DNA of 64,000 nt from Verrucomicrobiia bacterium (GCA_963664225.1 OY760937.1:3776001-3840000), one strand, 5' to 3'. Shown: positions 18,795-52,292, counted from the stretch's first letter. Numbers and translations: made by a program. Notes: generated from the sequence alone by a model not told the origin.

Positions 18795-19126
18795 TCACGC
18801 CCACTGCCGCCACACGTATCTTCGTTGCCCTGGCTCCGATGGACTTGCGCCAGTCCTTTAACGGGCTGTGTGCCTGGGTCCAGGAGTCCTTGCGTCAGGA
18901 TCCTCTCTCGGGCCATCTTTTTTTGTTCACCAACAAACACCGGAACCGTCTCAAGGCCCTTTACTGGGACGGCAGCGGACTTTGGGTCAGCACAAAACGT
19001 TTGGAGCGGGGTCGATTTACCTGGCCACAAGGGGAGGGATTGCAGGCAAACTTGCGCGCCGAGGAACTCAGCGCGTTAGTCAACGGATTGGAGATCCGCG
19101 CACGCAAAGACTGGCGGCGAAACTGA
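18791..19126 (+). CDS. tnpB: IS66 TnpB accessory protein
   Basis: PMDLRQSFNGL, LFLFTNKHRNRLKALYWDGSGLW..KRLERGRF; ATGA overlap with tnpA. Confidence 0.92.
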   Translation: MITPTAATRIFVALAPMDLRQSFNGLCAWVQESLRQDPLSGHLFLFTNKHRNRLKALYWDGSGLWVSTKRLERGRFTWPQGEGLQANLRAEELSALVNGLEIRARKDWRRN

Positions 19127-23367: not shown

Positions 23368-23459
23368 GAAACACCAAACCCTCTCAACCGAAGTGACCAA
23401 CAACAGGGTACAGGGAAGTTGATGCTGTTGACCACCAAACACCATCCGAAACGGCCAGA

Positions 23460-23566
23460 CCTCCCAAGAAGTCAGTCTGGCTGGCCTATAATCGTCCCAT
23501 TTTGGTTTGCGGAAACAGCCGGGGAGGTGCCTCCCAAGAAGTCAGTCTGGCTGGCCTATAATCGTC
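23460..23566. repeat. Two perfect 37-bp direct repeats separated by 33 bp
   Basis: CCTCCCAAGAAGTCAGTCTGGCTGGCCTATAATCGTC at 23460-23496 and 23530-23566. Confidence 0.9.
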
Positions 23567-23961
23567 TGGTATGGTCCGCAAGAAACAGAGGATTGAAGGG
23601 CAGGGAAAAAGAATTCCTGCGGCAGCTTGGTGAATCTCGGGTGGCTCGGGTCTGGATGAATGAAGATTATCGGACAGATATATTTCAAGCTATAGCGTCG
23701 GCACAGACCTTTATCGAATCAGTGTTAACCTAATTAGGCTTTCGATGCCGATGGTTTATTATCGTTACGAGCATCGCTCGCAAGTTCATTCGACTTCCGG
23801 AGGTGGCCAAGCGCAACGGTGTGCTTAAGCATCGCATCTGATGTGACCCAGAGTTTTCTCGATTGATTGCTTAGTAATGGGCAGAAAGTCGCCGCCAGCC
23901 GTCCGAAACGTCCCCTACAACGAAGTGCGGGATGCTTTCGACTGGCTGGAGATCAAAATAA

Positions 23962-25446
23962 TCACGGCGTGACGTTCATACATCCGCCAATTTTGCAGTG
24001 ACGGCCACCCAGCGGAGATGGTTTCTTGGGGGGATCATCATCTGCTTTATCGATTGCTGCCCATAGGGAAAACCGGTCGGGGAACCGTCGTTGGTTGTGC
24101 CTGCCACGGAAGAAAGTTAGGCCGCGATTTGGGTCCCGAGTAGTCCAAAGCGGCGCAGAATTCATGTCGAGGTCGAATGACATACGGGCGGCACTACTGC
24201 CGATATCGGGCGTGATGAAGGGGGAGGCTCCTGTCACCTTGACGCGCTCGAAGCCTGCAAGGAAGTCCGTAAATGCGAGCAAGGCGGCGAGTGGATTGCG
24301 CTCGAAGTTCGACCAAAGCGCATCCCAGTCCAAGCTGTCGGCGGATAGGTGCACTTGCTCGTGGTGCTCCGCGATTGCAGCGGCGATATGCTTGACGTCC
24401 GGACGCTGCCTTTCAGACGGGGCCATGCAATTAAGAAACTCGTGGGCAGAGAATAGTGCGTGGAGTCTCCCCCAAGAACGGGTGCGGGGGTCCTGGTCAT
24501 TGCACCCTTCAAGATGCCAAAGAACCTCATAAGGGCTTTTCTGGGCCAGGAAGTCCTGCTGTGCCCTTATCATGGCCTGTTGTAGGTCTGATGGGAGGAG
24601 TATTCCGATTTCCGTAACTAGGTATCCCAGAATCTCAGCAAATTGTTCCCAGAATGCCGGCATAATTCGGTCAACCGCTTGACAGTGTCGAAATTCCCTT
24701 GCGGTCAGCAGGTACCATGTGGCTGTGTCATAACCGGCGTCATGCCAAAGCGCTATCGCAATCCATGCTCGCCTGAGCCAGACTTCCGGCTCGGTATCAA
24801 GCATTGGGCTGTCAAACCAGTCCGAATGCTGCGCCCGATACATTTCAGCCAGAGCCCCAAAGAGGGTGATCGGACGGCAAGAGCCCCGAGTCGCGCGGCT
24901 TCCGCAGACGGCGTCTCGTAGCCTTTTTTCGATTGGCATACCAAGGGCGACCTCTCCTATGAACAGGCAAATCAGGGTGTGAACCAAGTGGTCTCTATTC
25001 TCGTATGGGAAGAATTTTCGTCCGGCGAGGGCTTTTTCGAATTCCTTGCGCTCGTAGAAGGCACCGAGAAAATGCCGGATCCACTCGGGTGAAAGGCTGT
25101 GCCGAACGACAATCGGTCCGCACGGCTCCGCGTTGCTATCCATGTTCAGGCGAACAGCAGGGAGTGGGTAGTTGTGCTCAATGCAGAGACCTACAAGTTC
25201 CCTGAGCGGTGGTGAAAGTCTACCCCCGAGTATGGAAATAGTGCTATTTGAGAGATCTTTGAGGGGCTCGAGGTAGTTACCCCCTCTGCTTAGTGGCAGC
25301 GTAGAGATATGCCTCGCGAGGAGGTCTAATTTATCCTGCAGCCATAAATCGCCCATTGGTTTGCCGAAAGCGTTGGACCAAGACGTTTCATGGTTCCACG
25401 CCTCGTATGAAAAGTGGCTTAGGGTTCGTTCGATTTGAGTGCTCAT
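23962..25446 (-). CDS. HD-domain metal-dependent phosphohydrolase-like protein
   Basis: RDHLVHT ... ALWHDAGY ... HALFSA ... AIAEHH ... LLAFTDFL, giving the H...HD...H...HH...D pattern. Confidence 0.7.
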   Translation of the reverse strand: MSTQIERTLSHFSYEAWNHETSWSNAFGKPMGDLWLQDKLDLLARHISTLPLSRGGNYLEPLKDLSNSTISILGGRLSPPLRELVGLCIEHNYPLPAVRLNMDSNAEPCGPIVVRHSLSPEWIRHFLGAFYERKEFEKALAGRKFFPYENRDHLVHTLICLFIGEVALGMPIEKRLRDAVCGSRATRGSCRPITLFGALAEMYRAQHSDWFDSPMLDTEPEVWLRRAWIAIALWHDAGYDTATWYLLTAREFRHCQAVDRIMPAFWEQFAEILGYLVTEIGILLPSDLQQAMIRAQQDFLAQKSPYEVLWHLEGCNDQDPRTRSWGRLHALFSAHEFLNCMAPSERQRPDVKHIAAAIAEHHEQVHLSADSLDWDALWSNFERNPLAALLAFTDFLAGFERVKVTGASPFITPDIGSSAARMSFDLDMNSAPLWTTRDPNRGLTFFRGRHNQRRFPDRFSLWAAIDKADDDPPKKPSPLGGRHCKIGGCMNVTP

Positions 25447-25450
25447 GAGC

Positions 25451-27010
25451 CTAGTCGTTCGCGAACATGCGTATAATTCTCATTAGCGCCTCGGACATTC
25501 CTGTGGAATGTTGGTCGGCAGCGATGATCTGGGCGAGGGTGCTCGACGATGTTGCATTTGGAGCAATGTCGGCGGCATGCACAAGGGTCTCTCGGTGGGG
25601 AAGGAAACAAACTCTATTCTTCAGCCGATTCCAATTTTGTCTAAAGAGGGCAGCGATTCTCGCGGGTGTCAATTCCGGAGAACGATCCATATAAGCAGCA
25701 ATTATTGGCGTATTTTCAAGGGCAGGAATCAGGAGCTCGGTGTTTTTTAGCAATGCCGCAGTGGTTGCCTCGCAAAAGTCCACCACCACGGCCAGACGAT
25801 CGCTGAGGCAAGCTTGGGTAAGCCAGGCTTCTTCAGTCGCTAAGGCGATGATATCGGGTGCCCGAGGCCTTAACACTACTGTCATGCAGCCGTTGAGTCT
25901 TATTGTGCTTAGAAAGATGTCGAGTGCAAGGTGAGCCATGCCAGGGGCGGTATCGAAAATCACGTGCGAGAATTTCTTCTCCGTAATGAGGTGCTTGGCA
26001 AGCGAACAAATCCGGCGCTGGTTTAACTCGCTCCGTTCCGCTCCCTGGGCTTGATCCAATTTCTGAATATCAGAGGAAATGATGGAACCTGGCACGAGGG
26101 TAAGGCGATCTTTCCAGGCGGGGTCTCCGTCGGAGATGGGCAGAAGCATTTCATCTGGGAACCATTTATAAGCTGAAGGAGACGTAAACCAGTTTACGAA
26201 TCGAACGGCCTTGCTCCTGCCAGGGCGGGTTGTGGGCAGGTAGAACTCCAGTGCGGGGCCTTCGTCGTCAGCGTCAACCAGGCAGACCTTATTATCGGGG
26301 CAGCGAGCCAAGTTAATAGCAAGCGCGATGGCAACGGTGGACTTTCCAACGCCGCCCTTACTTGAGTGAATGCTGATGACCCTCCCGTGCTGGATGCTTT
26401 CGTCGCTCAACCTGAAGGCCTCGTCAAGGGACGTCAGTTGGGCTAAATAGGCTGACGTACTTTTTACAATGGTCGTTAAGTTAGGTGTGAGATCATTTAG
26501 CTCAAGTCGGGCCTTGATGGCAGCATTGAGTGGGCGGCGCTGTTTGCTTGAGAGTTTTTCGAGGACAAAACCGAATACGGAGACACACTGTTCAACGATG
26601 CGCGGCGATGGCGATTGCACGCCTGATAAAAGTGATTCAAACGCGCGATCAACTAAGTCCCTCTCCTCAGCCGTCATTGGCCGTAGACACAGCGCGGCAT
26701 AAAGAAATTCACCGGCCTCTTTCACATATTTGCCTGCTGCGAAAAGCAGTCGACACTTTTCGGCGGACTCGGTTAAAAGGTCGGTATGCAGATTGTAGTT
26801 GGTAGCCAATCGGGCGAGCATGAAGTATTCCTCGCAACGGAGGTGCTGAGCTTTGAGGAACTTAGCAGATGGTTTGGATAATGAGGAGAAGCTAGAAAGA
26901 ACGCCAGCCCGATAGTGGTCTTTCAGGCGCTGTGAGATGGCGGATGGATCCTGCAGGGGCGTGCTGGTGTCCGGGTTGGGGTTGTTAGATGGAACATCTT
27001 TCGCTTTCAT
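25451..27010 (-). CDS. MinD/ParA-family ATPase with N-terminal helical domain
   Basis: ISIHSSKGGVGKST, LVDADDEGPAL, IFDTAPG. Start set at ATG 27010, which overlaps the radical SAM stop (ATGA). Confidence 0.8.
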   Translation of the reverse strand: MKAKDVPSNNPNPDTSTPLQDPSAISQRLKDHYRAGVLSSFSSLSKPSAKFLKAQHLRCEEYFMLARLATNYNLHTDLLTESAEKCRLLFAAGKYVKEAGEFLYAALCLRPMTAEERDLVDRAFESLLSGVQSPSPRIVEQCVSVFGFVLEKLSSKQRRPLNAAIKARLELNDLTPNLTTIVKSTSAYLAQLTSLDEAFRLSDESIQHGRVISIHSSKGGVGKSTVAIALAINLARCPDNKVCLVDADDEGPALEFYLPTTRPGRSKAVRFVNWFTSPSAYKWFPDEMLLPISDGDPAWKDRLTLVPGSIISSDIQKLDQAQGAERSELNQRRICSLAKHLITEKKFSHVIFDTAPGMAHLALDIFLSTIRLNGCMTVVLRPRAPDIIALATEEAWLTQACLSDRLAVVVDFCEATTAALLKNTELLIPALENTPIIAAYMDRSPELTPARIAALFRQNWNRLKNRVCFLPHRETLVHAADIAPNATSSSTLAQIIAADQHSTGMSEALMRIIRMFAND

Positions 27011-28398
27011 CGGGCATATTCCTTTATTGGGAGTTGGCAGGAAGCGAGGATTTCCTCGCAGGCTTGTTGAAGGATGTGCCGGCCGCCGGGGAGTTTGGTG
27101 GCCTCGGAGATGTAAAGGTCTCGGGCCGCTTCTAGGTCGTAGTCGAGAGCCCTGGTGATGAACGACGGCCACTGGCGGTCCTCAGGGAAAGTGGATTTCC
27201 ATAGCCAACTTCCCATAAGGGGCATGATAATGTTGCCGTAGCAGAGGACGTCGGGCTTTGCGTGCAGTTCGCACGTTAGGGAGACGGTTTCGTCCAAGGA
27301 TGCCTCATCTTCGTCCAAGAGGCCCAGGACGAAGGAACATGAGACTTTGATGCCCGCAAGTACGAGGTCGTCAACAGCCTGAATTATCGCCCGGCGAGAA
27401 ATGAACTTGCCGTTGCAGCGGAGGATACGTTCGCTTCCCGATTCGATGCCGAGGAGGACGCTGTCCACGCCACAAGAAGCGAGCGCAAATGCGATTTCAT
27501 GTGTGATGTCCCTGGCGTCGGCGAAGACCATCATTTTGATGTCGTCGATGAGTCTCTCTTTGCGCTGATGACAGAACGCGTCCATCCAGGGACCGTCCAC
27601 CCATGTGTCACTAGTGTCGAGGATGTAATCCACGCCGAAGTTGTCCAGAAGGTAGCGGATTTCCTGCGCAACCGTTACGGGATCGCGGCTGCGGAAGCCC
27701 TTGTCCTGACGGGCGCAGAATGAGCAGCGCCGCTTGCAGCCGCGTTTTGAGAAAAGGTTGGCAGCCCGCTGGCCGGTCATGTTGATGAGGGTGTTGGTGC
27801 CGCGGTACTCCGCCAAGTATTGTTGAGGATCGATGCCGCCGAAATCGCGCGGGGGCATCTTCTGTTCCCAGACGTTTTCGAGGACCGTTTCCGTTCGAGC
27901 CAGGCCATGATTTGTCTTCAGGAGGAGATTTGGAACTTGGTGGAGGTCTATGGTTCCGTCAGCGAGCTGGCGCGACAGGGCCTGGAGGGTTGGTTGGCCA
28001 TCGCCGATGCACACCGCGTCAATAATGGGTTCCATCGCGAGCGAGGGGCCAGCCGCTGTGGCCGGTTGGCCGCCGACAATGACCAGCGTTCCTTGTTTTT
28101 TTGCTTGGGCCGCGATGGCAGCGAGCGATTTGGAGGAGAGCGCTGTGTAGGTAAGACCGAGAACATCTGCACCCGCTGCCGAAAGACGGTCGAGGAGTCG
28201 CGGCCCTAGGATGGTGCCATCCAGAATTTCGACGTCGCAGCGGGAGTCCACGGAGTCGGCGAGGAGGAGGAGATCGAGAGGCATGTTCCATTGGTCAGCG
28301 GCGATGCGGGCATCGTCAATGGGGCAGCGCGCGAGCACAATCTTCGGTTTCATAAACATGTCGTGGGCAAGGTTAACTACTAGGCGCTTTGCTTGCAA
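27007..28398 (-). CDS. B12-binding-domain radical SAM enzyme
   Basis: CxxxCxxC in RGCKRRCSFC; N-terminal cobalamin-binding-like region (DVLGLT..VIVGGQPAT..DAVCIGDG); GIESGS; SFVLGL. Start may be at MFMKPK (~28359/28353). Confidence 0.9.
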   Translation of the reverse strand: MQAKRLVVNLAHDMFMKPKIVLARCPIDDARIAADQWNMPLDLLLLADSVDSRCDVEILDGTILGPRLLDRLSAAGADVLGLTYTALSSKSLAAIAAQAKKQGTLVIVGGQPATAAGPSLAMEPIIDAVCIGDGQPTLQALSRQLADGTIDLHQVPNLLLKTNHGLARTETVLENVWEQKMPPRDFGGIDPQQYLAEYRGTNTLINMTGQRAANLFSKRGCKRRCSFCARQDKGFRSRDPVTVAQEIRYLLDNFGVDYILDTSDTWVDGPWMDAFCHQRKERLIDDIKMMVFADARDITHEIAFALASCGVDSVLLGIESGSERILRCNGKFISRRAIIQAVDDLVLAGIKVSCSFVLGLLDEDEASLDETVSLTCELHAKPDVLCYGNIIMPLMGSWLWKSTFPEDRQWPSFITRALDYDLEAARDLYISEATKLPGGRHILQQACEEILASCQLPIKEYAR

Positions 28399-29720
28399 GA
28401 CTTAAGACGGACCCAGAGGGAGCCGGCGAGAAGAGTGAGGAGAACAACCGGCAGCGAAATCACAGAGATGCTAGGCTCGGCTTTGGCCAAAATCGTCACA
28501 AGAATAACTGACACGAGTCCAAGGACGAGACTCCAAAGGACGACTTTTGGATGGAGACGCCAGAGCAATCCGCCGAGCAGGATTGGGAAAAGGCCGACGC
28601 TCATTCCAGCGAGCGCAAAGGCGACTTTAAGGACATCTTTAAACAGCCACCCCGAGATAGCGGCAAGTGTGACTGACGCGATGACGATGCTTGCTGATAT
28701 ACGCCTTGTCGTGCGTTCATTCCTGATTTCGAGAATGTTGAGGACCACCGTTGGCGCGATGACGAACAGCGCTGTATCCGCCGTGGAGAGGATTGCAGAA
28801 AGGAGGAGAAGCATTCCAAGGCCCTGACAGGCTCTCGGTAAGAGGCTTTGGAATACTTTGACTAGAGCGTCCTCTGGGTTGAGGCCGGGGAAGTGGGCAT
28901 AGGCGGCGAATCCGATCCCTGCGAGGATTACGCCAACGAAAGGCAGCGTTATGCCGGCGACGAGTAGGCCGCCGCGGACCGCACGCGTGTCTCTGGCAGC
29001 AAAGCAACGTTGCCAAAGTTCCGGGGCGGAGAAAATGCCCATGCTGCCGATAATCAGGAATCCAACGACATCGGCGCCGGATTTGGAGAGATCCGAGTGC
29101 GCAAGGACGGTCTTCGCGTTAGCCGGGGATATCAGTTTAGGCAGTAGGAAGACGAGGATGAAGAGGATTAGGACCCACTGAAAGATGTCGGTCGTAATCG
29201 AGGCGCGGAAGCCACCCGTGATGGTATATGACAGGAGGAAGAAAGCGATTATGAAGATGCAGGTGATGTAGGAAAGTCCGCTTAATCCCTGGAGGATGGT
29301 GGCACCCAAAATGAATTGGATGAGCAGCAGGGAGACATAAAAGATGACGTTGTAGAACGAGACGAGTTTGGCGGCTGGCTTGCCGTAGTGACGCTCAAAG
29401 TAATCGGACATGCCAAAGTAGCCATTGTCTCTGGCCTCGCGCTGTAAGCGGGCGGTGAAGACGGAGAAGAGGATGAACCCCAGAACAATTCCGATAAACA
29501 GCGAGATTGCAGGCCAACCGTATTTGTAAACGAAGCCGGTGTAGGTTACGAGAATGAAACCATCAAAGAAGCCGGCCGCGATAGAACAGCCTAGGCCCAA
29601 TGGGCCGACCTTCCGGTCAGCAATCAGATACCAATTGAACCCCTTACCCTTGGAGGCGAGGTACCCGAGGATAACCAAGAATATGGCGTAAGGTATTAGG
29701 AGTGCGAAGTTAGTGTCCAT
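28380..29720 (-). CDS. Sodium:solute symporter (SSS) family transporter
   Basis: About 13 hydrophobic segments; YLIADRKVG, GGFRASITTDIFQ, WQRCFAA, SAILSTADT. Confidence 0.92.
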   Translation of the reverse strand: MDTNFALLIPYAIFLVILGYLASKGKGFNWYLIADRKVGPLGLGCSIAAGFFDGFILVTYTGFVYKYGWPAISLFIGIVLGFILFSVFTARLQREARDNGYFGMSDYFERHYGKPAAKLVSFYNVIFYVSLLLIQFILGATILQGLSGLSYITCIFIIAFFLLSYTITGGFRASITTDIFQWVLILFILVFLLPKLISPANAKTVLAHSDLSKSGADVVGFLIIGSMGIFSAPELWQRCFAARDTRAVRGGLLVAGITLPFVGVILAGIGFAAYAHFPGLNPEDALVKVFQSLLPRACQGLGMLLLLSAILSTADTALFVIAPTVVLNILEIRNERTTRRISASIVIASVTLAAISGWLFKDVLKVAFALAGMSVGLFPILLGGLLWRLHPKVVLWSLVLGLVSVILVTILAKAEPSISVISLPVVLLTLLAGSLWVRLKSCKQSA

Positions 29721-29945
29721 GGGAGTATCCTTAATTTGTAAACGAAGCCGGTTTAGGTTACGAGAATGAAACCATCAAAGAAGCCGACCGCGATAGAACA
29801 GCCTAGGCCCAATGGGCCGACCTTTCGGTCAGCAATCAGATACCAATTGAACCCCTTACCCTTGGAGGCGAGGTACCCGAGGATAACCAAAAATATGGCG
29901 TAAGGTATTAGGAGTGCGAAGTTAGTGTCCATGGGAGTATCCTTA
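29522..29945. repeat. 212-bp tandem duplication of the SSS RBS and 5' end; the upstream copy encodes a truncated 59-aa peptide (29753-29932, minus strand)
   Basis: Copies 29522-29733 and 29734-29945 differ at 4 positions; one changes TAC to TAA. Confidence 0.95.
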
Positions 29946-29953
29946 GAGTGCTA

Positions 29954-32900
29954 TCAAACGTACTTAAGGCGATCGGCGATTTCGGCCATGTTGTAGGGGC
30001 GCTTGTCGGGGTTGTTATCGAGACATTGCTCGATGAGGTTCTTCATCGGGTTGCTGGTGACGTACTTGATGAGGTCGGGATCCGGTTTGCCTTCGAGCAT
30101 GAAGAGGCAGAGCTTTCCAAAGGAGAAGATGTCAGCGGCAGGAGCGGCCTGGACGCCAGCAACTTGCTCTGGGGATGAGTAATGGGGGGTGTGGGCACCC
30201 TGGAGGGTTACTGCGGTGATGGGGCGGCCAAGGTATTTAGAGATTCCGAAATCGCCGATTTTCCACACTTTGTTCACTCGGAGTATGTTCTGAGGTTTGA
30301 GGTCACGGTGAACGATTTGGGCTTCGTGGATGCTTTGAAGGGTCTTGGCGAGGCCAATGGTGATGGCTTTGGTCTCGAGGATGTCGAGTTTGCCGGAGGC
30401 TTGCTTAGTGACGAAGTCGTGGAGGTTTCCGCCATCAGCGTACTCCAAGACGAGGTACTGCTTGTCGCCCTCGCGGACGAAATCACAGACGGCCAGGACA
30501 TTGTCCTTGTAAGCCAGTTTCTGGAGGATTTCCAGCTCACGCCGAAACTGGGCTTCGAGCTGTGGGCTGCCGGTGGAAACGAGCACCTTGACGGCGTAAG
30601 TCTTGCCGTCTTCGAGGCTCACTGCCCGGTAAACGGTGCCGGATGCGCCATCACCGAGCTTTTCTTCGAGACGGTACTTGCCGTCGAATGATTGGACAGC
30701 AGGCTTGGGTACCGGTTTGGCCGCGACGGCCTTGTCTCCGGCCTTCTCGTAGAAAGGGGTGATTCTCGCCTGGATGTAAGGTTCGAAGTGGTTGCTGCGT
30801 ACCAGGGCGGTGTGTGGGGCCTGGTTGAGGATCATCTGGCGGGCGATGTCGCGCTCCGATTTGTCCACCAGGCCGAGGTTCTCGGACATTACTTTGGCGT
30901 CCTCGCCTTCGAGTTGGAGGGCGATCTTAGTCCCGACCATGTCGAAGACCACTCGGTCGAAGTCCTTGACGCTTTGGGAGGCGAGAAGAATGCCGACGCC
31001 GTATTTACGTGCTTCCCGGATGAGCTCCGTGAGCGTCTCTTCGTAAGAAAGCTTGTGGGCTTCGTCCACAACGGCGAAAACGCGCATGGCCTGCGTGGGA
31101 CCTTTGGCGAGCATGTCAGCGTAGATCTTCTGGAGGACGAAGCGGCTGACTGCGACCATTAGCTCGGGCGTGGCCAAGTTAGAAAGGCGTAGAACGTGGG
31201 TCTCTTTCAGTATCGCTTCGAATCCATGGGGATCGGGGCCATCGAGGAAGATGCCGGTTTCAAAAAGGGGCTGAACACGGAGGTTGAGATTGCGGACATT
31301 ACCGCCGACTGTGGCCTCCATCTGCTTGAGGATGTTCCATACTGACGAGAAGCTCGGAGGCGGCAGTTGCCAGGTTTCCGGCTTGTTGGGTGCGAAGCCG
31401 GCGACGGCGAACGCCTGGCTGATGGCATCGCGTAGAATGGCGTGCTGAATGTCGCCGAGCCCGAAGATCTTTGCGAGGCTATTGGCAACCTGGTAAACAA
31501 CCTTTAGGTAGGTCTGCTTCTTGCCAGTGTGCGGGTCAACGGGGAGTTCAAGCGGATTAACGTGGATGCCGTTGGCGGCGTCGAGTTCTTTGGCGTTGGC
31601 GCAATCGAGGAAGGACTTTCCGTCGGCGTTTGCAAGCTTGCCGGAAATGTACTCGCCTTGGAAGTCGAAGATGATGGAAGGCACTTTGGCCTTGGCGAGC
31701 TCCCAGAGAAAAGAGCTGGTGGTCTGGGTTTTGCCGGCGCCGCTCTTGCCAACGATTAAGATGTGCTGATTCGTAAGCTTCTTGGGTGCTATGGCTGTGG
31801 GATCCCAGAAGATGGGCTTGCCGGTTTCCGAGTTGATGCCGATGCGCAGGCGGAGTTGGCCCGATTCCGGCGGCGGTTGCGGCGTAGTCCTAGACTTGGC
31901 TTCCGGCTTTAGTGGGGTCGGGTACACAAATGGCGAAGGGGCCGGTTCGGCGATTTGAGCGGGCGGCTCATTCTTCGACGACTCCGCAATGGTGCCCAGG
32001 ATTGTCGCTTTGTGTGGCGGGTACGACGCATGCGAACTTGGGGGTGTCGCCGGAGTCGTCGGCGATGGTGGCGTGACGGGTACAACGGCATTCGGAGCCG
32101 GGAGTGTTTCTGCTTGCGTTGGAGGTGGCTCCGTTGGATCTTCCTCAATGCCCAGTAGGGTTAGGATGCGTTCCCGGCCAATGATGAAGATTTGGTTGCC
32201 CTTGTAGTCTTCAGGCTGCTTGCTGACACCCGCAGTGTGAAAGATGTAACCGGCGTTCTCAAACTCAACGTCAAAGTTGCCCTCCTCAACTTGGCGGATG
32301 GCCTGAGATATGGCGCTGGCTCCTTTGGGGGATGGCTCCATGAGGCCATGGCGTCGGCTACGCTCGAAGTAGAAACGGAGGAGGTTGGCGAGTTCTTTGT
32401 TCTGCAGCTCGCGGTCGAGCCGGTCGCCGACGGGTTTGGGGACGAAGCGAGCCTCGAAGACCTTGCGAGTGTCCGCATTCTTCTGGGCGATCGCGTCCCT
32501 TAGCAACTGATCCTCGCTGGGGGCATCGCTACCGGTGCGGTATTTGACTTCGATCAGGCGCAGAACGAGCTTGCCGTTCTTGACGAAGGCGTAGATGAGG
32601 TCGCTACGCTTGATGCGGATGTCAGCTTCGTCCGACTCGCGTTTGTGATCGGCGAATAGATCAATGTGGGAATCCACCGGGATAAGGATGCCGGTCTTGA
32701 GGTCTCCCCCCTCTTGGAGAAGCAGCCGGGTGAGGGCGAGGCCAATGATTTCCTTGGCGTCCTTGGGATTGTTGATGAGTTTTAGCGCCAGCCGGCCGGA
32801 GATGGATTTCAGGACGTCGAGAATCTGCGAGGCTTGGAAGCCGGTGCCAGGGATCCCCATTTTCTTGAGGCCATCAGAAATGATGCCTTCGATTTCCGAA

Positions 32901-35900
32901 AGCCAGAAAGTGGAAATGATGAGGCGATGGCCGAGGCCGTCGAGGAACTCCGGGGTGTAATCAATGAGGTAGCTGCGGACGGCGCCACCGCCGGCGCGCG
33001 GGTTGTCGAAGTATTCAATCCCGAAGTTGCGGTCAATGGTGAAGACCCAGTCCGAGTGCTCGTGGATGTGGTTGATGAGGTGTTTATCGGTGTCGGAGAG
33101 CTCCAACTGGATGGCGGGCACCTTGTCGAGGGAGTTGCCCCAGTCGAAGAAGGAGGCTGAGAGTCGAGTGAGACCGTCAATGGACTGGAAGAGGGCTCGG
33201 GCGCAGGATGCGCCAGGTTGCAGTTCCGGGTTCTGGTTCGGGATTACTTTTCGGGACCATGTGGCGGAGTCGCCTTTGACATCGAAATCGGCGCGGTACT
33301 CTGCGAGCAGGTTATGGAGGCAGAAGCTGCCCGGGGGCGGCTGGCTTTGGCGAGTGAGAACCTTCGTGGAGAATCGGTCTATAAGGATGGTGATGTGCGC
33401 CTCGCGAAACTCGGTGCTGTGCCAGTCGCCTTCGGTTAGTTTGCGTTTAGAAAAGGTCAGTTTCGGGAACAGGGGGTTCTTATTCGGTTTGAGGAGTTCT
33501 TCGTCCACGTCCGGTTGTGCGCCTTCGGACAGAGTTGTTCCCTCTGTAACTTCGTCGAAGGCGCTGCCCATGATCTCGTAGCGTTGGTCGGCGTAGAAGG
33601 CGACATCGTAATTAAGGTCTTTGAAGTCGTCGCCCCTTTGGATCAGGCGAATGGCGTTGAGGACGAGAAGGCCGTCGCCGGGGTTGATGACGTTGATGCG
33701 CAGCGTTGAAACGTACGGATGATGCTTGAGATAGCGCCAGACGCGATCAGCGATGTGGGGCGCGGTGATGACGGTAATGTCGCCGGCGTTGAGCCTGAAG
33801 CCGAGGAGGCGCTGCAACATGCTAACGGCTTTACGGACATCGGGCGTCTTGCCGTTGGGCAGAATGCTCCAGTAAAGGTCGAGGTTGTCAGAGTTGACGT
33901 AGATGTCGTCGTTCTGGAACGCGAGGACGGAGGGAATGTTCAGGGAGTTGATGCGTTGGTGCGCCTCGCGGCTGACCATGGCGACGGCGTCCTTTTCGGA
34001 TACTCCATTGAGCCGATCGGCCCAGGAGTAGAGCAGTTGCTGGTATTGGAGCAGCCAGAGCAGCTTGATGGGGTGGGTCGGAGCGAGGAGGAGGAGCTGG
34101 TCCACGCCTTCGGAGTCGCCGACCTTCAGGTGGATGGTATCAAGGCGACTAAGTTTGTGGGAAGCACTGAGAATATTGTTGACCTGACCGTCGCCTTTGG
34201 CGACTTTGAGCTTGGTCTGGACCTCGGCTAAGACCTCAATAAACGCGTTGGCATAGGCCATGATTTCGGGAGTGAAGTCGCGGAGATCGAAAATCTCGAC
34301 AACGCCATTTCCGGGGTCTTTCTCTTCTAATCTCTCGAAGAGAGCGACGCGGGTTTGGAGGAACTGGGAGAAGGTGGCGAGATCGGAGACGGCGAGCGGG
34401 AAAGGCTTGAGATCATTAAGTTCCATCGCGCCGCGATTGGTGAGATCGCCCTGCCAAGCACCCAGGTTTTTCGGGTCGGAAATGGTCCATCGTTCGATAG
34501 CATGGAGGAGTGGGTTGATGATGAGGTGGTAGCGGTCCCGGCTCTTGAGTTTGAGACGGTAGAGGAATGGTCGGTGCCCTTCCTCCCAGCCTTCGCTGTC
34601 CACTTCTATCTTAGTGCGGGAGCGGCAGGCGCCGAGGAAAAATGCCTCGGCGCGGTTGCGGATGATGTCCATCTTTTTGGAGCCGCTCGGTTTCTCCTCT
34701 TCGCCGCCTTCGATCCAGAAGGGCTCGCTCCCGTCAGCATCGAGCATGATACCGGAGCGGTCGCGGGCCTGGACGATGATTTTCGCGGCGCAAGCTTCGC
34801 CGTCGGCCAGCTCGATGTCTTTAAGACTGATTTTGGAGCGGGTTTCGGTCTTCTTGTTGTTCTTGATGGTCTTCTTGAGCAGCTCGGCGCCCAATTCCTC
34901 GTCGTCGGTATCCCGCACGATTAGGACGACGAAGTGGCCGAGGGCCGGAGAGTTAGTCGGGTAGGTTCTCCACTTAATCTTGATGGGGGCCTTGGTGTTG
35001 GCGATGAGGTTGCCGCCACGGTCTTCGAAGCCTTCGGCGACTCTGTTGGTTTTTGGGTCTCGCAGGGGGTCAAAGTGGACCTCGACCTTTCCTTCGCTGG
35101 GGGTATCAACAAACTTCCACTTGTCAAAGTTCAGATCGGAGCATACGACCTGGTCGGCGAGAATGCCATGGAGCCATGCCTGGCTGTCCGCGATATTGCG
35201 TGAGCGGAGGTAGGCGACGAGATTCTCGCGGAGATTGTTGGCCTGGGGATCCAATTGAATGGTTTGGGCCAATTCTACCAAAGCTGACAGGGTGCTCTGG
35301 CTTTCATTGGTCAGCTCTCCAACGCACCTGGAGTTGCGGTCGAGGCGGGTCTGGAAGTTGTCCTGCTTTAGGTCGAGATCGGGAATGAGACCGAGATGGA
35401 ACAGGTAGGCGCCGGCTTCGTACCAATTGGCGGCATCGTTCTTGAGTGCGAGGAGGTACTTGATTTGTTGGTCCACCGGCAGGCGGCGGATTGCGGGTTG
35501 GCTGAGGACGGTGGTGGCTACCTCCTGGCCGGGGGCCGGAAGTGCGTTGAGCATTGCGCGGACGTGAGCACGAAGAACGTTGCCAAGGTCGTAGGTTTTG
35601 AAAGTTTGGATGTCGTAGGAGTCTTCCGCGGGGAGGCGTAGGCCCTGGGGAATAAACGCGACCAGGACGCCAAAGTGCTCGCGATTACGCTTTTCGATTA
35701 GGGCACCGCTCTCAATTTCGAGTTCATTGGTGGTCTGGGTGGCGAGAACGTAACCTTCGACCTGGCGCTTTTGGAGGTTGGAATCTTTGGAGATGCGCTC
35801 GCAAACGATTGACATGACTTCGACGGGCAGGAATTCTACTCGCTGGCAATGGTTGTTTTGCTTTTCGAGGAGGAAGTCGCGCAGGTGTACAAAGACGGCT

Positions 35901-35944
35901 TCTGCCATTTCCTGGTGTAACAATTCGCGGGTGACTTCGAACAT
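29954..35944 (-). CDS. MAD8/DptH-like protein: large N-terminal region + PD-(D/E)xK nuclease + HerA/FtsK-like ATPase + C-terminal Hanks Ser/Thr kinase
   Basis: RSDLIY...LIEVKYR; Pro-rich linker; HILIVGKSGAGKT, VVDEAH, REARKYG..LASQ; LGDGASGTVY, AVK, HRDLKPQN, DFG, SPEQ. Confidence 0.85.
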   Translation of the reverse strand: MFEVTRELLHQEMAEAVFVHLRDFLLEKQNNHCQRVEFLPVEVMSIVCERISKDSNLQKRQVEGYVLATQTTNELEIESGALIEKRNREHFGVLVAFIPQGLRLPAEDSYDIQTFKTYDLGNVLRAHVRAMLNALPAPGQEVATTVLSQPAIRRLPVDQQIKYLLALKNDAANWYEAGAYLFHLGLIPDLDLKQDNFQTRLDRNSRCVGELTNESQSTLSALVELAQTIQLDPQANNLRENLVAYLRSRNIADSQAWLHGILADQVVCSDLNFDKWKFVDTPSEGKVEVHFDPLRDPKTNRVAEGFEDRGGNLIANTKAPIKIKWRTYPTNSPALGHFVVLIVRDTDDEELGAELLKKTIKNNKKTETRSKISLKDIELADGEACAAKIIVQARDRSGIMLDADGSEPFWIEGGEEEKPSGSKKMDIIRNRAEAFFLGACRSRTKIEVDSEGWEEGHRPFLYRLKLKSRDRYHLIINPLLHAIERWTISDPKNLGAWQGDLTNRGAMELNDLKPFPLAVSDLATFSQFLQTRVALFERLEEKDPGNGVVEIFDLRDFTPEIMAYANAFIEVLAEVQTKLKVAKGDGQVNNILSASHKLSRLDTIHLKVGDSEGVDQLLLLAPTHPIKLLWLLQYQQLLYSWADRLNGVSEKDAVAMVSREAHQRINSLNIPSVLAFQNDDIYVNSDNLDLYWSILPNGKTPDVRKAVSMLQRLLGFRLNAGDITVITAPHIADRVWRYLKHHPYVSTLRINVINPGDGLLVLNAIRLIQRGDDFKDLNYDVAFYADQRYEIMGSAFDEVTEGTTLSEGAQPDVDEELLKPNKNPLFPKLTFSKRKLTEGDWHSTEFREAHITILIDRFSTKVLTRQSQPPPGSFCLHNLLAEYRADFDVKGDSATWSRKVIPNQNPELQPGASCARALFQSIDGLTRLSASFFDWGNSLDKVPAIQLELSDTDKHLINHIHEHSDWVFTIDRNFGIEYFDNPRAGGGAVRSYLIDYTPEFLDGLGHRLIISTFWLSEIEGIISDGLKKMGIPGTGFQASQILDVLKSISGRLALKLINNPKDAKEIIGLALTRLLLQEGGDLKTGILIPVDSHIDLFADHKRESDEADIRIKRSDLIYAFVKNGKLVLRLIEVKYRTGSDAPSEDQLLRDAIAQKNADTRKVFEARFVPKPVGDRLDRELQNKELANLLRFYFERSRRHGLMEPSPKGASAISQAIRQVEEGNFDVEFENAGYIFHTAGVSKQPEDYKGNQIFIIGRERILTLLGIEEDPTEPPPTQAETLPAPNAVVPVTPPSPTTPATPPSSHASYPPHKATILGTIAESSKNEPPAQIAEPAPSPFVYPTPLKPEAKSRTTPQPPPESGQLRLRIGINSETGKPIFWDPTAIAPKKLTNQHILIVGKSGAGKTQTTSSFLWELAKAKVPSIIFDFQGEYISGKLANADGKSFLDCANAKELDAANGIHVNPLELPVDPHTGKKQTYLKVVYQVANSLAKIFGLGDIQHAILRDAISQAFAVAGFAPNKPETWQLPPPSFSSVWNILKQMEATVGGNVRNLNLRVQPLFETGIFLDGPDPHGFEAILKETHVLRLSNLATPELMVAVSRFVLQKIYADMLAKGPTQAMRVFAVVDEAHKLSYEETLTELIREARKYGVGILLASQSVKDFDRVVFDMVGTKIALQLEGEDAKVMSENLGLVDKSERDIARQMILNQAPHTALVRSNHFEPYIQARITPFYEKAGDKAVAAKPVPKPAVQSFDGKYRLEEKLGDGASGTVYRAVSLEDGKTYAVKVLVSTGSPQLEAQFRRELEILQKLAYKDNVLAVCDFVREGDKQYLVLEYADGGNLHDFVTKQASGKLDILETKAITIGLAKTLQSIHEAQIVHRDLKPQNILRVNKVWKIGDFGISKYLGRPITAVTLQGAHTPHYSSPEQVAGVQAAPAADIFSFGKLCLFMLEGKPDPDLIKYVTSNPMKNLIEQCLDNNPDKRPYNMAEIADRLKYV

Positions 35945-35948
35945 ATAT

Positions 35949-38660
35949 TTATCCGAGTGCTTTCTCCACAGCCGTCAAAACAAGACCTTCCCCAAGCTCT
36001 TCGTGTTGCCTGATCAGCGCTTGGCAAGCCACGAGTTTGTCTAGGGCGTGGTTTAGCTCTTCTAGCAGCTTTTCGCCTGGTCTTGCTACCTTCATCGTTT
36101 TGACCTCTTCTGGATGTAGGTGCTCGACGACGGAGCCATAAGTCTTCATGTTGAAGAAATCGTCTCCGAATTTAGAACGTAGAAAAAAGTAAATGTATCC
36201 CCGATATTTTGGGTCTCGCGGTGCAACGCGGAGCATGTCACCTCGCACCACAGTTCCATGCATGTCTTTCGTAACGAGTGTCACGTGGCCGACCGTTCCA
36301 GAGCCGCTGAGGAGTATCCACCCTGAAGAGACCTGCAGTTTGGCGAGTCGTGGGTCAGCCACGAGTGAAACGTAACGCCTTCGAGGGTTACGCTTCTGCA
36401 TATCGGAAGGGGTCAAAAACGGCTTGGTGACCGCATCCTTAGGATCGTCTGAGAGGACAAATAAGGGACTCTGGAGGTACACCGTAAAAACGTCTGCAAT
36501 CTCTTTTAGTTCTATTGTGTTTTTTGTGGCGCGTTCGAGTCGAATATAATGCTCATTGCTGACATATGATTCGGCATTGAGTCGAAAGCCAGCGACTCTT
36601 ACAAGGCTTGGGGTGACTGTCATTGCGCTGCAACGGTAAGGGATGTCCGTTATTGGGCTTTGACAATGCAGCGGGATAGGCGCCGGCTGCCGGCCGTTTT
36701 CCGACCATCCTCTGAACAGAGAGGCGCACGCCCAAAGATCGTCGTCCAGGACTTTTCCTGTACTCTCGACTGTGGGTGAGCAATTGAGTAGGGTCTGTTG
36801 GGCAGCAGGGATGTATGCGTCGCGTTTGTTGATTTCGACGCCCCTATCGTCACGAATGTAAACTAGAGCTCCTCGCCTGTTTTTTCCGATGCTCCGGGAA
36901 GAACACATGAAAATGTTGTAGTCGCTCGGCTTGCCAAAACTCCGAGCGAGTTTCTCTTGTTCTGAAAGGCGCCGCAGAATGAGAACGCTTGTTTGGGTTC
37001 CGGTTCGAGGAAGGAAGGTCTCGACTGGAAGTTGTATGCTCGCGATTATTTCGCATTGGGATAAAATCCACGCGCGGAGGTATTCGTTTTCGGGTGTTCC
37101 GAGAAGGCCATTCGGGACAACCATTCCTAGTCGCCCGGTGCCCGGCTTGAGGAACTGAATGCAGCGCTCGATGAAGAGAACTTCTGGGGGCATGGCGGTT
37201 TTGAGTTTTCCGGTCATTGTCCAGCGCTTGTCCGACGACTCCCAAGAATGCGCCACGTCGTATTGTTCGAGAACCTCTTCACCTTCGACCTTGATCGAGG
37301 TTCCGAAGGGCGGATTGGCCATAACAAAATCCATGGTCCCAAGTTCAAGGATGTCCTGCGCTTCCTTGGAAGCCCAGTGGGTTGGTTTCCAGAGGGCGTT
37401 GAGGGCGAAGAGGCCTCCGCGACCGTCATTGTTCATGACCATGTTCATCTGGGCGGTTTTGACGAGGTTGGCATTGAAGTCCGCACCAAAGATGAACTTG
37501 CTGGTTTCATGGATTTCCGCGAACAACGCGCGTTCTTCCTGCAGGGTTGGTTTTTCTTTGGCCTTCCAGGTTCTGCTTGCGGTTTGGCGGAGTTTTTCCG
37601 AGACGTAGTTGAAGGCCACAACTAGGAACCCGCCAGTGCCGCAGGCTGGATCGAAAATGCGTTTGCCTGGCCCTGGGTCGAGCATCTTTACGACCATTTT
37701 CACCACGTTCCTGGGCGTGAAAAACTCACCTTTGGCGCCTTCGAGTGTGGGGCCGACGATGGTTTCATAGGCGACGCCCTTGACGTCCACGGAGGAGTGA
37801 ATGAAGTCATATTTTTCGAGTTGGGCAACGATGAATGTAACAACCGCGTCGTTGAACAGGATGCCCTGGGTGGTGTCGGTGAAGAGTGGGCGGAACTCCT
37901 TGCGGGCGCAAACCTCGCGGAAGAGCTGCTCGACGCGGTCCTTGACTTCCTTCTGGCCGGGTGAGGCATTACGCTCGTCCGAATTGCGGATCGCAAAGCG
38001 CGGCCGGCCATCGTGCTGCTCATCTTCGATCTTGGCGAAAAGGATTTTGAGGAATTCCCAGAAGATCTGTTCTTTGGAACCGCCCTGGTTGGCGTGAATG
38101 AAATCGTGGCACCGTTTGAAGGCGTTCAGTAGGTTGGTGCCGGTGGCAACGCGAAGCCGGGAGCGGTCGGTTGTGAAAATGGAGGAGGCGTCCTCGCCCT
38201 TGCGGGGGAAGTCGTTGACAGGAAGGATGTCGGTGTCGAACTTAGCTTTCTTCTTCTGAAAGTAAATGGTCTCGACGCCATTGGTCCAGCAGGCGAATTC
38301 GGCGCTGGTGCAAGCAACGAGAGCCTTTTCGAGTTCGCCAGCGCCGCCCTTGTCATCGGTGGGCTGAACACCCGGCTTGGCGATATATATGAGGATGTGG
38401 AGGGAGTCCTGGTCCTGAGCTTTGGCACCGGCGCGGAAGACGGCGAGTGGCAGCGTGCGAGAGACGGAGCGGGAGCCGTCCGGAATTCTGATACGAAAGT
38501 CCGCTGCCACATCGGATTTATCGAAGCGGTATTCTTCGATGAGCGTCCGCTCGAAATTCTGGCGGACTTGCTCCAATTCGTTGTCGAGTCGGGGCTTGCC
38601 ATCAATGAAGTCAATGATCTTGCCTTCCGAGGCCTCGGGTTGGTTGTGATCGTCGGGCAT
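35949..38660 (-). CDS. N6-adenine DNA methyltransferase with HsdR_N-like N-terminus and fused single target-recognition (S) domain (MAD2+MAD5-like / type IIG-like)
   Basis: EQVRQNFERTLIEEY, WTNG, GEFFTPRNVV, DPACGTGGFL, ANPPFG, FRLNAESY, ILLSGSGTVG, YGSVVEHL. Confidence 0.9.
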   Translation of the reverse strand: MPDDHNQPEASEGKIIDFIDGKPRLDNELEQVRQNFERTLIEEYRFDKSDVAADFRIRIPDGSRSVSRTLPLAVFRAGAKAQDQDSLHILIYIAKPGVQPTDDKGGAGELEKALVACTSAEFACWTNGVETIYFQKKKAKFDTDILPVNDFPRKGEDASSIFTTDRSRLRVATGTNLLNAFKRCHDFIHANQGGSKEQIFWEFLKILFAKIEDEQHDGRPRFAIRNSDERNASPGQKEVKDRVEQLFREVCARKEFRPLFTDTTQGILFNDAVVTFIVAQLEKYDFIHSSVDVKGVAYETIVGPTLEGAKGEFFTPRNVVKMVVKMLDPGPGKRIFDPACGTGGFLVVAFNYVSEKLRQTASRTWKAKEKPTLQEERALFAEIHETSKFIFGADFNANLVKTAQMNMVMNNDGRGGLFALNALWKPTHWASKEAQDILELGTMDFVMANPPFGTSIKVEGEEVLEQYDVAHSWESSDKRWTMTGKLKTAMPPEVLFIERCIQFLKPGTGRLGMVVPNGLLGTPENEYLRAWILSQCEIIASIQLPVETFLPRTGTQTSVLILRRLSEQEKLARSFGKPSDYNIFMCSSRSIGKNRRGALVYIRDDRGVEINKRDAYIPAAQQTLLNCSPTVESTGKVLDDDLWACASLFRGWSENGRQPAPIPLHCQSPITDIPYRCSAMTVTPSLVRVAGFRLNAESYVSNEHYIRLERATKNTIELKEIADVFTVYLQSPLFVLSDDPKDAVTKPFLTPSDMQKRNPRRRYVSLVADPRLAKLQVSSGWILLSGSGTVGHVTLVTKDMHGTVVRGDMLRVAPRDPKYRGYIYFFLRSKFGDDFFNMKTYGSVVEHLHPEEVKTMKVARPGEKLLEELNHALDKLVACQALIRQHEELGEGLVLTAVEKALG

Positions 38661-38663
38661 AAG

Positions 38664-40292
38664 TTAAACGTTGTCAGCGGTAATGGGAAAACGGGGTTTG
38701 ATGACCTGAGAGATGGAGGCATCCGACAGATCGGTGAAAAAGCCGAGCTGACGGAGGCGATCCTTGAGAGCGCTGTAATTGTGCTCGAGGGCACGGGCGA
38801 CGTCAGGGCTGTCATTAGGCGTGCCAGTGGTGTCGATCAGGAGGCCGTAGCGGTCGCGGAGCCATTTCACGAAGCTTGCGACTGTTTTGGGTTCGGTAAT
38901 GAACTCACCTTGCTTGTTGATGCCGACAACAAAAAGTTGGACGAGAATTTCGAGTAGCTGATTGCCAAGAATGTACTTGCGGCGTTTGCCACGCCCACCG
39001 TGCAGGAAGCCGTCCTCGCGGTTTAGGCCACAGAGGGAGGCCATGAGCGCCTTGTGATTACGGGAACGGCTTTTGAAGGTCTTCTGGTAGAGGACCTCGA
39101 CGAAGGAATCAAGCGGGTCGAGCTTGAGGTCCTGGATGGCTTTGATTTCCATGTCGGGCTCGGCATCTTCGTCGACCTGGGTGACTTCACTGAGTTTAGT
39201 CAGGAAGTAACCATCGACATTCTTATCGCTTAGGCAAGCGATGGCTTCTTCGACAGAGCCCTTGTAGAGCGACCCGCGCGAAACCTGAGCAAACTCGTCC
39301 AGCTTCTTTAGGACGTAATGAGCACGGAAATAACGGAACATGAGGCCGTAGTGCTTGGCGACCTTCTGCTTGGCGAGCTCGTCGCAGGTTTTATTTTGGC
39401 CGTTAGTGAGGTCAACGAAAATATCGGGGTGGTGCTCGCACTCGCCCATGAGGTGGAGGGTGTCCGCCTTGATGCCTTTGCACTTGGAGCAACGGTACTT
39501 CTTCGAGTCAACCAGTTTGAGCACGAGGGAAAAAGTGCGGAGGCAGTACAGAGCGGAGTGGAAGGAAAACAGCGAAATCAAGTATTGGATCAGCTCGCGA
39601 CGGGGAATCACGTCCTTGTACACGAGGAGCCGGGCCGTGTCGTTGATCAGGAGCTGCTGATGAGCGGGGCAGAGGAAGTTGTGAGGGGGAACCTTTTTCC
39701 GGTTATCAGGCAGATCGGCTTTGAAATGCTCAAGCAGACGGAGGAGGAAGAGGGTTTCAACATCAAGAGCGGCGGCGGAGGGTTCGTGGATCTTCAGGTC
39801 AGTATCGCCAAATGGTTTAGTGCCTTTTTGGAGGTAGGGAAGAAGGAGGCTGTTTTCGCCGATGATCAGGTCGGTTTCACGGAAGACGTTATAGAGGAAG
39901 AGACTGAGGTCGCGGTCCTGGCTGCGAATGCGCGGGTCCAGGAGCTTAATGGTGCTCATGTGGATGGGCTTGAGGCTGGCGATGCGCTCCTTGCCGCCCC
40001 GGCCCATACCAGCGCGTATGCATGTGGAGAAGTCGCTGGCAAGCCAGTGCTCCAGCAAGCGCTCACGCTGGGGGTCACCAGAGACGCCCTGGAAGTGGGT
40101 GGTGTCGTCCTTGACAATCTCGACCAAGTTCTCGGGGTAGAGGGTATTCTTGGTGGTCGAGGTGATGGGGCGGCCCTTGGTGCGGATGAGGACTAGGAAC
40201 CGAGCGAAGGCTTGTTCGAGGATGATGTTGTTTGCATCAACCGGCATCAGGGTGGCCCAGCGGAAGGATTTATGATTTTTTGTAATAGGCAT
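38664..40292 (-). CDS. MAD7/DptG-like protein
   Basis: Position between ATPase and MTase; C-terminal KYILGNQLLEILVQL...LRDRYGLLID...LKDRLRQLGFFTDLSDA, recalled as typical of this family; CxxC insert. Confidence 0.7.
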   Translation of the reverse strand: MPITKNHKSFRWATLMPVDANNIILEQAFARFLVLIRTKGRPITSTTKNTLYPENLVEIVKDDTTHFQGVSGDPQRERLLEHWLASDFSTCIRAGMGRGGKERIASLKPIHMSTIKLLDPRIRSQDRDLSLFLYNVFRETDLIIGENSLLLPYLQKGTKPFGDTDLKIHEPSAAALDVETLFLLRLLEHFKADLPDNRKKVPPHNFLCPAHQQLLINDTARLLVYKDVIPRRELIQYLISLFSFHSALYCLRTFSLVLKLVDSKKYRCSKCKGIKADTLHLMGECEHHPDIFVDLTNGQNKTCDELAKQKVAKHYGLMFRYFRAHYVLKKLDEFAQVSRGSLYKGSVEEAIACLSDKNVDGYFLTKLSEVTQVDEDAEPDMEIKAIQDLKLDPLDSFVEVLYQKTFKSRSRNHKALMASLCGLNREDGFLHGGRGKRRKYILGNQLLEILVQLFVVGINKQGEFITEPKTVASFVKWLRDRYGLLIDTTGTPNDSPDVARALEHNYSALKDRLRQLGFFTDLSDASISQVIKPRFPITADNV

Positions 40293-40301
40293 AAGGCAAC
40301 C

Positions 40302-52216: not shown

Positions 52217-52292
52217 GATTATATTGACCATTCACCATCGAGGCTAAACCCAATGTTTTTAGCGTATTTATTGGTATGGCGGTGATTCATCG

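Follow-up and report, generated by a model that had tools for sequence, protein, structure and literature searches.

Results

A rare four-gene cassette beside a MADS-like operon

The window, a 64,000-nt stretch of the genome of a Verrucomicrobiia bacterium (GCA_963664225.1 OY760937.1:3776001-3840000), carries four intact co-oriented open reading frames (ORFs) on its minus strand that span 23962-29720 and lie directly behind a MADS-like defence operon. In order of transcription, they encode a membrane protein of the sodium:solute symporter (SSS) family, a B12-binding radical SAM enzyme, a ParA/MinD-type ATPase and an HD-superfamily protein. As judged from sequence comparison, this cassette is an undescribed and very rare combination of known enzyme superfamilies, including a new family of HD proteins. 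It is conserved as a unit away from MADS, and since the other readable loci lack MADS, so that the association is seen only in this genome, the attachment of the cassette to the MADS-like operon looks like a one-off juxtaposition and not like a conserved arm of that system, as the original prediction for this DNA had proposed.

The four ORFs could be read in the sequence as the co-oriented, tightly packed genes that had been predicted. Direct reading showed that the stop codon of the radical SAM gene and the start codon of the ATPase gene share an ATGA at 27007/27010, and that the ATPase stop and the HD start nearly abut with a 4-nt spacer (25451/25446). A third contact, an overlap of the SSS and radical SAM genes at 28380/28398, had also been predicted. 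This overlap needs a TTG start and is doubtful, because the homologues of the radical SAM enzyme are 448 aa long and ATG codons are present at 28359 and 28353, either of which leaves a spacer of 20-26 nt after the SSS gene.

The cassette at other loci

Besides the window, three metagenome loci (L002, L003 and L004) had readable flanks, L003 being a contig of 6.4 kb (Table 1). No MADS family or other known PADLOC family was detected in the scanned neighbours of these loci (0/3), and L002 contained no defence gene in 21 kb. The original prediction had named ordinary metabolic surroundings of the homologues as evidence that would speak against it, and L002, which lies among glycoside-hydrolase and esterase genes, comes close to that. 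In addition, relatives of the HD protein, the ATPase and the radical SAM enzyme have the same longest-contig values, 40267 and 16584, from which we infer two further linked loci.

Table 1 Arrangement of the cassette at other loci and amino acid identity of its products to those of the window
Locus	Arrangement	Surroundings	Radical SAM	SSS	ATPase	HD
L002	SSS-radical SAM-ATPase-HD, order as in the window	~640 bp non-coding upstream; apiosidase-like (glycoside-hydrolase), esterase and beta-helix genes around	69%	72%	38%	44%
L003	ATPase-HD, then convergent radical SAM at the contig end	Short 6.4-kb contig	39%	Not seen	28%	32%
L004 (4375-11539)	ATPase (636 aa), then HD gene split by a Mutator-family insertion sequence (IS)	Type IV secretion system coupling-protein and VirB11-like genes upstream; polyprenyl synthetase and MFS transporter genes downstream				
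Contig 40267			84%	Not seen	72%	71%
Contig 16584			69%	Not seen	43%	46%

Since the ATPase-HD pair and the radical SAM gene of L003 lie on opposite strands and the identities differ between the genes, we read the cassette as two modules, a conserved one consisting of the permease and the radical SAM enzyme, and one consisting of the ATPase and the HD protein that appears to evolve about twice as fast. A permease remnant in L003, suggested by a 28-residue match, was not borne out. In the flanks of the four loci, a search for a conserved small ORF that could encode the precursor of a ribosomally synthesised and post-translationally modified peptide (RiPP) gave none.

An Rfam scan of the window and L002-L004 revealed no riboswitch or other RNA family, and the same sequences contained no tRNA genes. 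A tRNA-like 3' fragment upstream of the L002 cassette was considered and left unconfirmed, as the tRNA scan found none.

Distribution

A word-indexed search of 5.77 billion proteins returned six relatives of the HD protein and three of the ATPase, and a full profile search of 1.84 billion proteins returned 23 representatives of the HD protein, 20 of them at E ≤ 1e-30. The radical SAM enzyme belongs to a discrete family: 42 relatives scored at least 141 bits, and the next match falls to 75 bits. No true relative of the HD protein emerged from two scans of 185,579 species genomes; a 52-residue match from the genome scan (L005) was dropped, since hhalign showed only the WHDxGY motif to be common. 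The HD gene was detected in none of 40 relatives, and the radical SAM gene in none of 400 genomes of the order and none of 400 genomes of the phylum. At the DNA level, the 20-kb region had no match in a genome of the same genus or in two genomes of the same family. The HD and ATPase profiles found nothing on viral contigs, and plasmids gave no HD match and only distant radical SAM proteins with 26-29% identity. Judging from these searches, the cassette is a very rare, accessory unit.

Three relatives of the radical SAM enzyme with 26-27% identity were obtained from viral contigs, but L010 and L011 have different gene neighbourhoods, and these proteins were not accepted as family members. The B12-radical-SAM-like proteins of L010 (9720-10934) and L011 (9935-11152) are 404-405 aa long, and the two contigs share a gene order whose products are 235, 245, 404, 135 and 180 aa. 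Among the scanned genes of L010, an upstream glycosyltransferase-like gene was the only one with a PHROG match.

Permease, radical SAM enzyme and ATPase

The domains predicted for all four genes were recovered, three by library matches and that of the HD protein by its motif and a structural model. The permease matched Pfam SSF over profile positions 1-403 of 406 (1.2e-22), scoring 80.9 bits where 22.8 are required. It scored below the equivalog cut-offs for PanF and PutP, and no solved relative was found in PDB at E ≤ 0.01. The L002 copy shares 72% of its residues (Table 1).

The product of the second gene matched Pfam PF04055 (Radical_SAM; 1.8e-18; 67.7 bits against a cut-off of 29.5) and, in its N-terminal part, PF02310 (B12-binding; 3.2e-09; 37.1 bits against 32.1). 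The cluster motif C206-x3-C210-x2-C213 (CxxxCxxC) is invariant in 34 sequences. By this domain content, the second gene product is a class-B (cobalamin-dependent) radical SAM enzyme. Its best NCBIfam matches were the MCR glutamine C-methyltransferase TIGR04014 (2.2e-16) and a RiPP C-methyltransferase subfamily (8e-15), with scores that fell far short of what these families require (59.7 against 360 bits). The closest solved chain was 9ccb (E 3.3e-11), followed by OxsB (E 0.011) and TsrM (0.075); 9ccb is QCMT according to the accessible text of a 2026 review (PMC12931638).

The third protein matched Pfam ParA, CbiA and AAA_31 above cut-off (~1e-09 to 1e-10), while its N-terminal domain of ~205 aa had no family match. 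A deviant Walker A motif, KGGVGKS (K218-GGVGK223), and the motifs VDxDDEGPxL and DxxPG (D353-xx-PG) are invariant among its relatives. These features identify it, at the level of sequence, as a ParA/MinD ATPase of the SIMIBI class with a deviant Walker A. It also matched a PHROG for ParA-like partition proteins (4.1e-16). The best solved match was 7npd (4.5e-09), which by the titles in the search listing is ParA2 of Vibrio cholerae, and the alignment starts ~60 residues ahead of the P-loop. The family of KGGVGR-motif variant AAA ATPases (NF047398) was considered and rejected: the score was 47.9 bits against a cut-off of 90, and the motif here is KGGVGK.

A new family of HD proteins

The 494-aa product of the last gene had no family match in Pfam, NCBIfam, PADLOC or PHROG. 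A 19-member alignment revealed the invariant residues D152-H153, H156, H235-D236, H329, H361-H362-E363 and D394. In the accessible part of a review of the HD superfamily (PMC8177086), the pattern H..HD..H..HH..D is that of polynuclear phosphodiesterases (PDEs), and H..HD..D is that of most phosphatases. HD-GYP proteins were rejected as a class, as the alignment has no invariant GYP triad and only G238-Y239 follows the HD, then D/E.

An AlphaFold model built from 19 sequences (pLDDT 82.6; pTM 0.87) replaced an earlier one built from six (pLDDT 55.1). Foldseek found no match to either model in PDB at E ≤ 0.001, and an exhaustive structural aligner gave Z ≥ 2 for 160 of 48,161 chains, with middling Z values of up to 8.4. 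Among the 50 best structural matches, the titles of at least 34 name HD hydrolases or PDEs. The types of match comprised cyclic-nucleotide PDEs, HD-GYP, Cas3-HD (Z 5.5-6.5), SAMHD1, YqeK and HDOD. A sequence search of PDB with this family gave one chance-level match (E 0.29), and a profile search gave none at E ≤ 10. Besides the HD core, the model shows an N-terminal part (1-150) and a beta-rich C-terminal part (403-468). Because the Z values are middling, the assignment rests on the motif and the fold enrichment together. Taking both into account, the fourth protein is a member of the HD superfamily, of the dinuclear/polynuclear phosphodiesterase type by its motif and with a predicted activity to match. 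In terms of the four profile libraries searched, none of which contains it, it represents a new family.

The MADS-like neighbour, the junction and the surrounding island

The operon upstream of the cassette encodes a 591-aa SspF/DndF-like protein, a 542-aa MAD7-like protein that also matches SspG, a 903-aa MAD2-MAD5 fusion and a 1996-aa fusion of MAD8, DndH/HerA and MAD6-kinase parts. The MADS-like neighbour that had been predicted is thus present, with matches to the MAD7, MAD2, MAD5, MAD8 and MAD6 models. Because all MAD matches were below the NCBIfam curated cut-offs (for example, MAD7 388 bits against 410, and MAD2 620 against 720), the operon is, by these matches, a divergent, hybrid MADS-like system.

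Between this operon and the cassette lies the duplicated leader of the original prediction, which is real: a 212-bp tandem duplication, with copies 98% identical, begins 8 nt (predicted, about 10 bp) past the stop codon of the 1996-aa gene, the nuclease-HerA-kinase gene of that prediction. Both copies contain an AAGGA ribosome-binding region together with the first part of the permease gene (Table 2). They differ at four positions, one of which makes codon 60 of the upstream copy TAA, and the repeat period of 212 nt would also shift the reading frame. An 80-bp read-derived contig crosses the repeat junction in two runs, and the depth of the repeat unit is raised; these two runs may be the source samples of the assembly and are not counted as independent support. 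The duplication is not an assembly slip, and the reads say nothing of how widespread it is. With its four diverged positions, it fits a past rearrangement where the cassette meets MADS.

A 451-bp piece, 29283-29733, comprising the permease ribosome-binding region and the first 146 codons, was identical in contigs of two other samples, X4 and X5, at depths of 145.7 and 29, respectively, which are far above those of the flanking pieces. In a contig of run X5, this 5' part of the permease gene is joined to unlike upstream sequence exactly at the repeat boundary 29733, which hints that this start of the gene also occurs in a different setting.

In 23000-31000, sites resembling terminators or promoters were no commoner than in shuffled sequence. 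With no more than 8 nt and the truncated leader copy between it and MADS, the cassette may be read through from the MADS promoter in this genome.

The window as a whole is a mobile and defence island with a relaxase, ArdC, ParA, IS66, IS4 fragments, type I restriction-modification (RM) and SIR2-HerA (Table 2). The genes listed between 2314 and 20842 are features of a conjugative element. Embedded in the type I RM locus are a gene for a 554-aa protein that matches no family, a pair encoding HerA (8e-130) and SIR2 (8.6e-69), and a RhuM-family gene. Downstream of the cassette, a 37-nt sequence is present in two perfect copies 70 nt apart (23460-23496 and 23530-23566), both between the cassette and a convergent 462-aa ORF that has no family match (21979-23367). 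No further copy of this sequence was found anywhere in the genome.

Table 2 Features of the cassette, its junction with the MADS-like operon and the surrounding island (coordinates in the window)
Feature	Position	Strand	Basis or remark
SSS membrane protein, 446 aa	28380..29720	(-)	Pfam SSF
Class-B (B12-binding) radical SAM enzyme, 450/448 aa	28359/28353..27007	(-)	Pfam Radical_SAM and B12-binding
ParA/MinD-type ATPase, 519 aa from ATG	25451..27010	(-)	Pfam ParA/CbiA/AAA_31
HD-superfamily protein, 494 aa	23962..25446	(-)	Motif and AlphaFold model
Downstream repeat copy	29522..29733	(-)	Ribosome-binding region with codons 1-66 of the intact transporter gene
Upstream repeat copy	29734..29945	(-)	Ribosome-binding region and truncated 59-codon transporter 5' end, closed by TAA
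MADS-like operon (context, outside the cassette)	29954..42077	(-)	PADLOC/NCBIfam/Pfam matches
TrwC relaxase	2314-5124		Conjugative-element feature
PDC-S01-like AAA_14/DUF4143 ATPase	12307-13755		
ParA	14415-14975		
N6/N4 DNA methylase	15335-16258		
ArdC-like anti-restriction protein	16740-17882		
IS66 TnpB	18602-19126		
IS66 transposase	19193-20842		
IS4-family transposase fragments (DDE_Tnp_1, DUF4372)	42639-43878	(-)	Directly upstream of the MADS-like operon
Schlafen/AlbA_2 protein	47482-48828	(-)	Further upstream of the MADS-like operon
Type I RM (hsdR, hsdS, hsdM)	49061-60930	(-)	With embedded genes

Discussion

Proposed function of the cassette

It is hypothesised that the cassette is an autonomous small-molecule pathway that moves horizontally and entered a defence and conjugation island by insertion or recombination. 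We favour this hypothesis by analogy with OxsB/OxsA, and hold it tentatively, at somewhat less than an even chance of being right. In such a pathway, the permease would move a solute, either a precursor or a product, across the membrane, and the radical SAM enzyme would use cobalamin-dependent radical chemistry to methylate or rearrange a substrate that is phosphorylated and possibly nucleotide-like. Hydrolysis of a phosphoester or phosphodiester bond, in this substrate or in its target, would fall to the HD enzyme, which the ATPase, as a dimer, would gate or scaffold. The benefit may be defence, antagonism or nutrition.

Several observations weigh against this hypothesis. The absence of MADS elsewhere rests on three loci, one of which (L003) is 6.4 kb long. 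In the window, the cassette follows the defence operon after 8 nt on the same strand, with no predicted terminator and within a dense defence island, and from so tight an adjacency, guilt-by-association would read the cassette as defence. A ParA-like, probably DNA-binding ATPase and an HD motif shared with Cas3 would suit the targeting of nucleic acids better. Furthermore, the nearest solved relative of the radical SAM enzyme methylates a protein and not a small molecule, the cassette has no nameable substrate, and L004 lacks a radical SAM gene in 19 kb and has the polyprenyl synthetase and MFS transporter genes instead.

Alternative explanations

The cassette could be a stand-alone defence or anti-plasmid system in which a DNA-binding ParA-like ATPase controls a Cas3-like dinuclear HD nuclease effector, while the radical SAM enzyme and the permease supply a modification, a cofactor or a signal, and which travels between defence islands and conjugative elements. 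We regard this as the main rival, though an unlikely one. It would account for the position in a defence island directly behind MADS, for the occurrence of L004 on a conjugative element, where an IS breaks the HD gene, for the extremely patchy distribution, and for the faster evolution of the ATPase and the HD protein as compared with the other two. The polynuclear HD motif, as in Cas3 and HD-GYP, the structural matches to Cas3-HD and the closeness of the ATPase to the DNA-binding ParA2 point in the same direction, as do hits to PDC-M28B and PDC-M51A, which are guilt-by-embedding candidates. However, these PADLOC hits are weak and the candidates unvalidated, and a 12-helix solute symporter that is 72% conserved would be an unusual immune component. 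L002 lies among polysaccharide-degrading genes without a defence gene in its 21 kb, and the searches of viral contigs and plasmids yielded no member.

In another variant, the cassette would be a new kind of mobile system for immunity or conflict between elements, in which the radical SAM enzyme and the HD protein produce a modified nucleotide or act on one, much as OxsB/OxsA do for oxetanocin, with a dedicated permease and with the ParA-like ATPase as a switch, and which in this genome is co-expressed behind MADS as one 18-kb defence operon. We consider this distinctly unlikely as a whole. The nucleotide chemistry of the original prediction, taken separately, may hold, as it has a real precedent in OxsB/OxsA. 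Of that prediction, the gene calls and their operon-like packing stood, as did the duplication, the MADS-like neighbour and the lack of a named system with this composition; its assignment of the genes to MADS did not. As regards the composition, no PADLOC system model matched the cassette, and the only hits were weak ones of single proteins to the unvalidated candidates PDC-M51A and PDC-M28B (in L003, PDC-M28B down to 1e-10 and PDC-M51A 3.1e-07). A literature search among papers on anti-phage defence gave none that contains the term 'B12-binding radical SAM'.

As regards MADS, it is improbable that the cassette is a distal, co-transcribed arm that makes an antiviral small molecule or a second DNA mark read by MADS. 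The shared strand, the 8-nt gap, the lack of terminator-like sites above chance and the similar G+C contents of the two parts (0.549 vs 0.560) are what such an arm would show. None of the four cassette proteins, though, matched the mad1-mad8/MADS families of PADLOC and NCBIfam at E ≤ 0.01, and, small as the sample is, none of the three other readable loci is beside MADS. The published MADS is an operon of eight genes, and in the accessible text of the preprint that describes it, 'radical SAM' occurs 0 times. Moreover, the junction bears a rearrangement scar, the tandem duplication with its stop codon, and the X5 contig, which joins the permease 5' part to a different upstream sequence at 29733, provides a further hint against a fixed attachment.

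There is likewise little chance that the radical SAM enzyme C-methylates proteins or peptides, as the enzymes of the QCMT/MgmA or RiPP type do, and that its target is the HD protein, the ATPase or a peptide that the permease moves. The best NCBIfam matches (TIGR04014 and the RiPP subfamily) and the best solved relative, QCMT 9ccb, are of this kind. Against it stand the score of 59.7 versus 360 bits, the lack of a conserved small ORF in the flanks and the family annotation of SSS proteins as carriers of small solutes. Finally, a set of unrelated neighbours or a decaying remnant without joint function, to which the truncated duplicate leader as a local rearrangement and the IS-broken HD gene of L004 might point, is scarcely credible, since all four ORFs are full length as compared with their relatives, start and stop codons are coupled, and the conserved synteny, with the linkage of the radical SAM, ATPase and HD genes kept down to 28-39% identity, largely refutes it.

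The cassette offers a caution for defence biology: tight same-strand adjacency in one genome was not a conserved association at other loci. It also raises a testable question, namely whether neighbouring cargo can be recruited by read-through from a defence operon.

Comparison with known systems

The cassette resembles its MADS-like neighbour in position, being adjoining, on the same strand, in the same defence island and possibly co-transcribed. It differs in that its proteins match no mad model and that it occurs elsewhere without MADS. With dinuclear HD phosphodiesterases (Cas3 HD, HD-GYP and cyclic-nucleotide PDEs), the HD protein shares the H..HD..H..HH..D pattern, and its structural matches are almost all HD proteins or PDEs; unlike them, it matches none of Pfam HD, HD_5 and Cas3, lacks the GYP loop and is neither fused to a helicase nor encoded next to one. 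The radical SAM enzyme is built like QCMT/MgmA, with an N-terminal B12-binding Rossmann domain and a radical SAM barrel in ~450 aa, but it reaches only 45.9 to 59.7 bits and has no methanogenesis context. The ATPase shares the deviant Walker A, the signature lysine and an N-terminal extension with type Ia ParA (V. cholerae ParA2, 7npd), whereas it lacks a ParB or centromere partner, invariably comes with the HD protein and carries the unusual VDxDDEGPxL.

The original prediction had drawn an analogy with prokaryotic viperins (pVips), which are radical SAM enzymes that make antiviral nucleotides. To our knowledge, pVips are not B12-dependent, and no PADLOC pVip model matched the cassette at E ≤ 0.01.

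The closest parallel to the cassette is OxsB/OxsA (oxetanocin A, Bacillus megaterium), the one characterised system known to us that pairs a cobalamin-dependent radical SAM enzyme and an HD hydrolase. OxsB needs OxsA. The cassette likewise encodes a B12 radical SAM enzyme together with an HD-superfamily protein. We know of no SSS permease or ParA-like ATPase in the oxs cluster. By sequence membership, the cassette does not encode an OxsB/OxsA-type pair: the match of OxsB (744 aa against 448) to the radical SAM enzyme reached only E 0.011 and was confined to 41 residues about the cluster motif, and the HD profile did not find OxsA at E ≤ 10. OxsA, of ~190 aa, has the pattern H..HD..D, whereas the 494-aa HD protein has H..HD..H..HH..D. 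In the accessible parts of the two reviews, OxsA is described as forming an antiviral nucleoside analogue by phosphate removal (PMC8177086), and OxsB as a class-B enzyme of the structural class of QCMT, TsrM and TokK (PMC12931638). Should the cassette turn out to encode functional chemistry, it would become only the second known case in which a B12 radical SAM enzyme works with an HD hydrolase, and the first in which a dedicated permease and a ParA-like ATPase accompany the pair.

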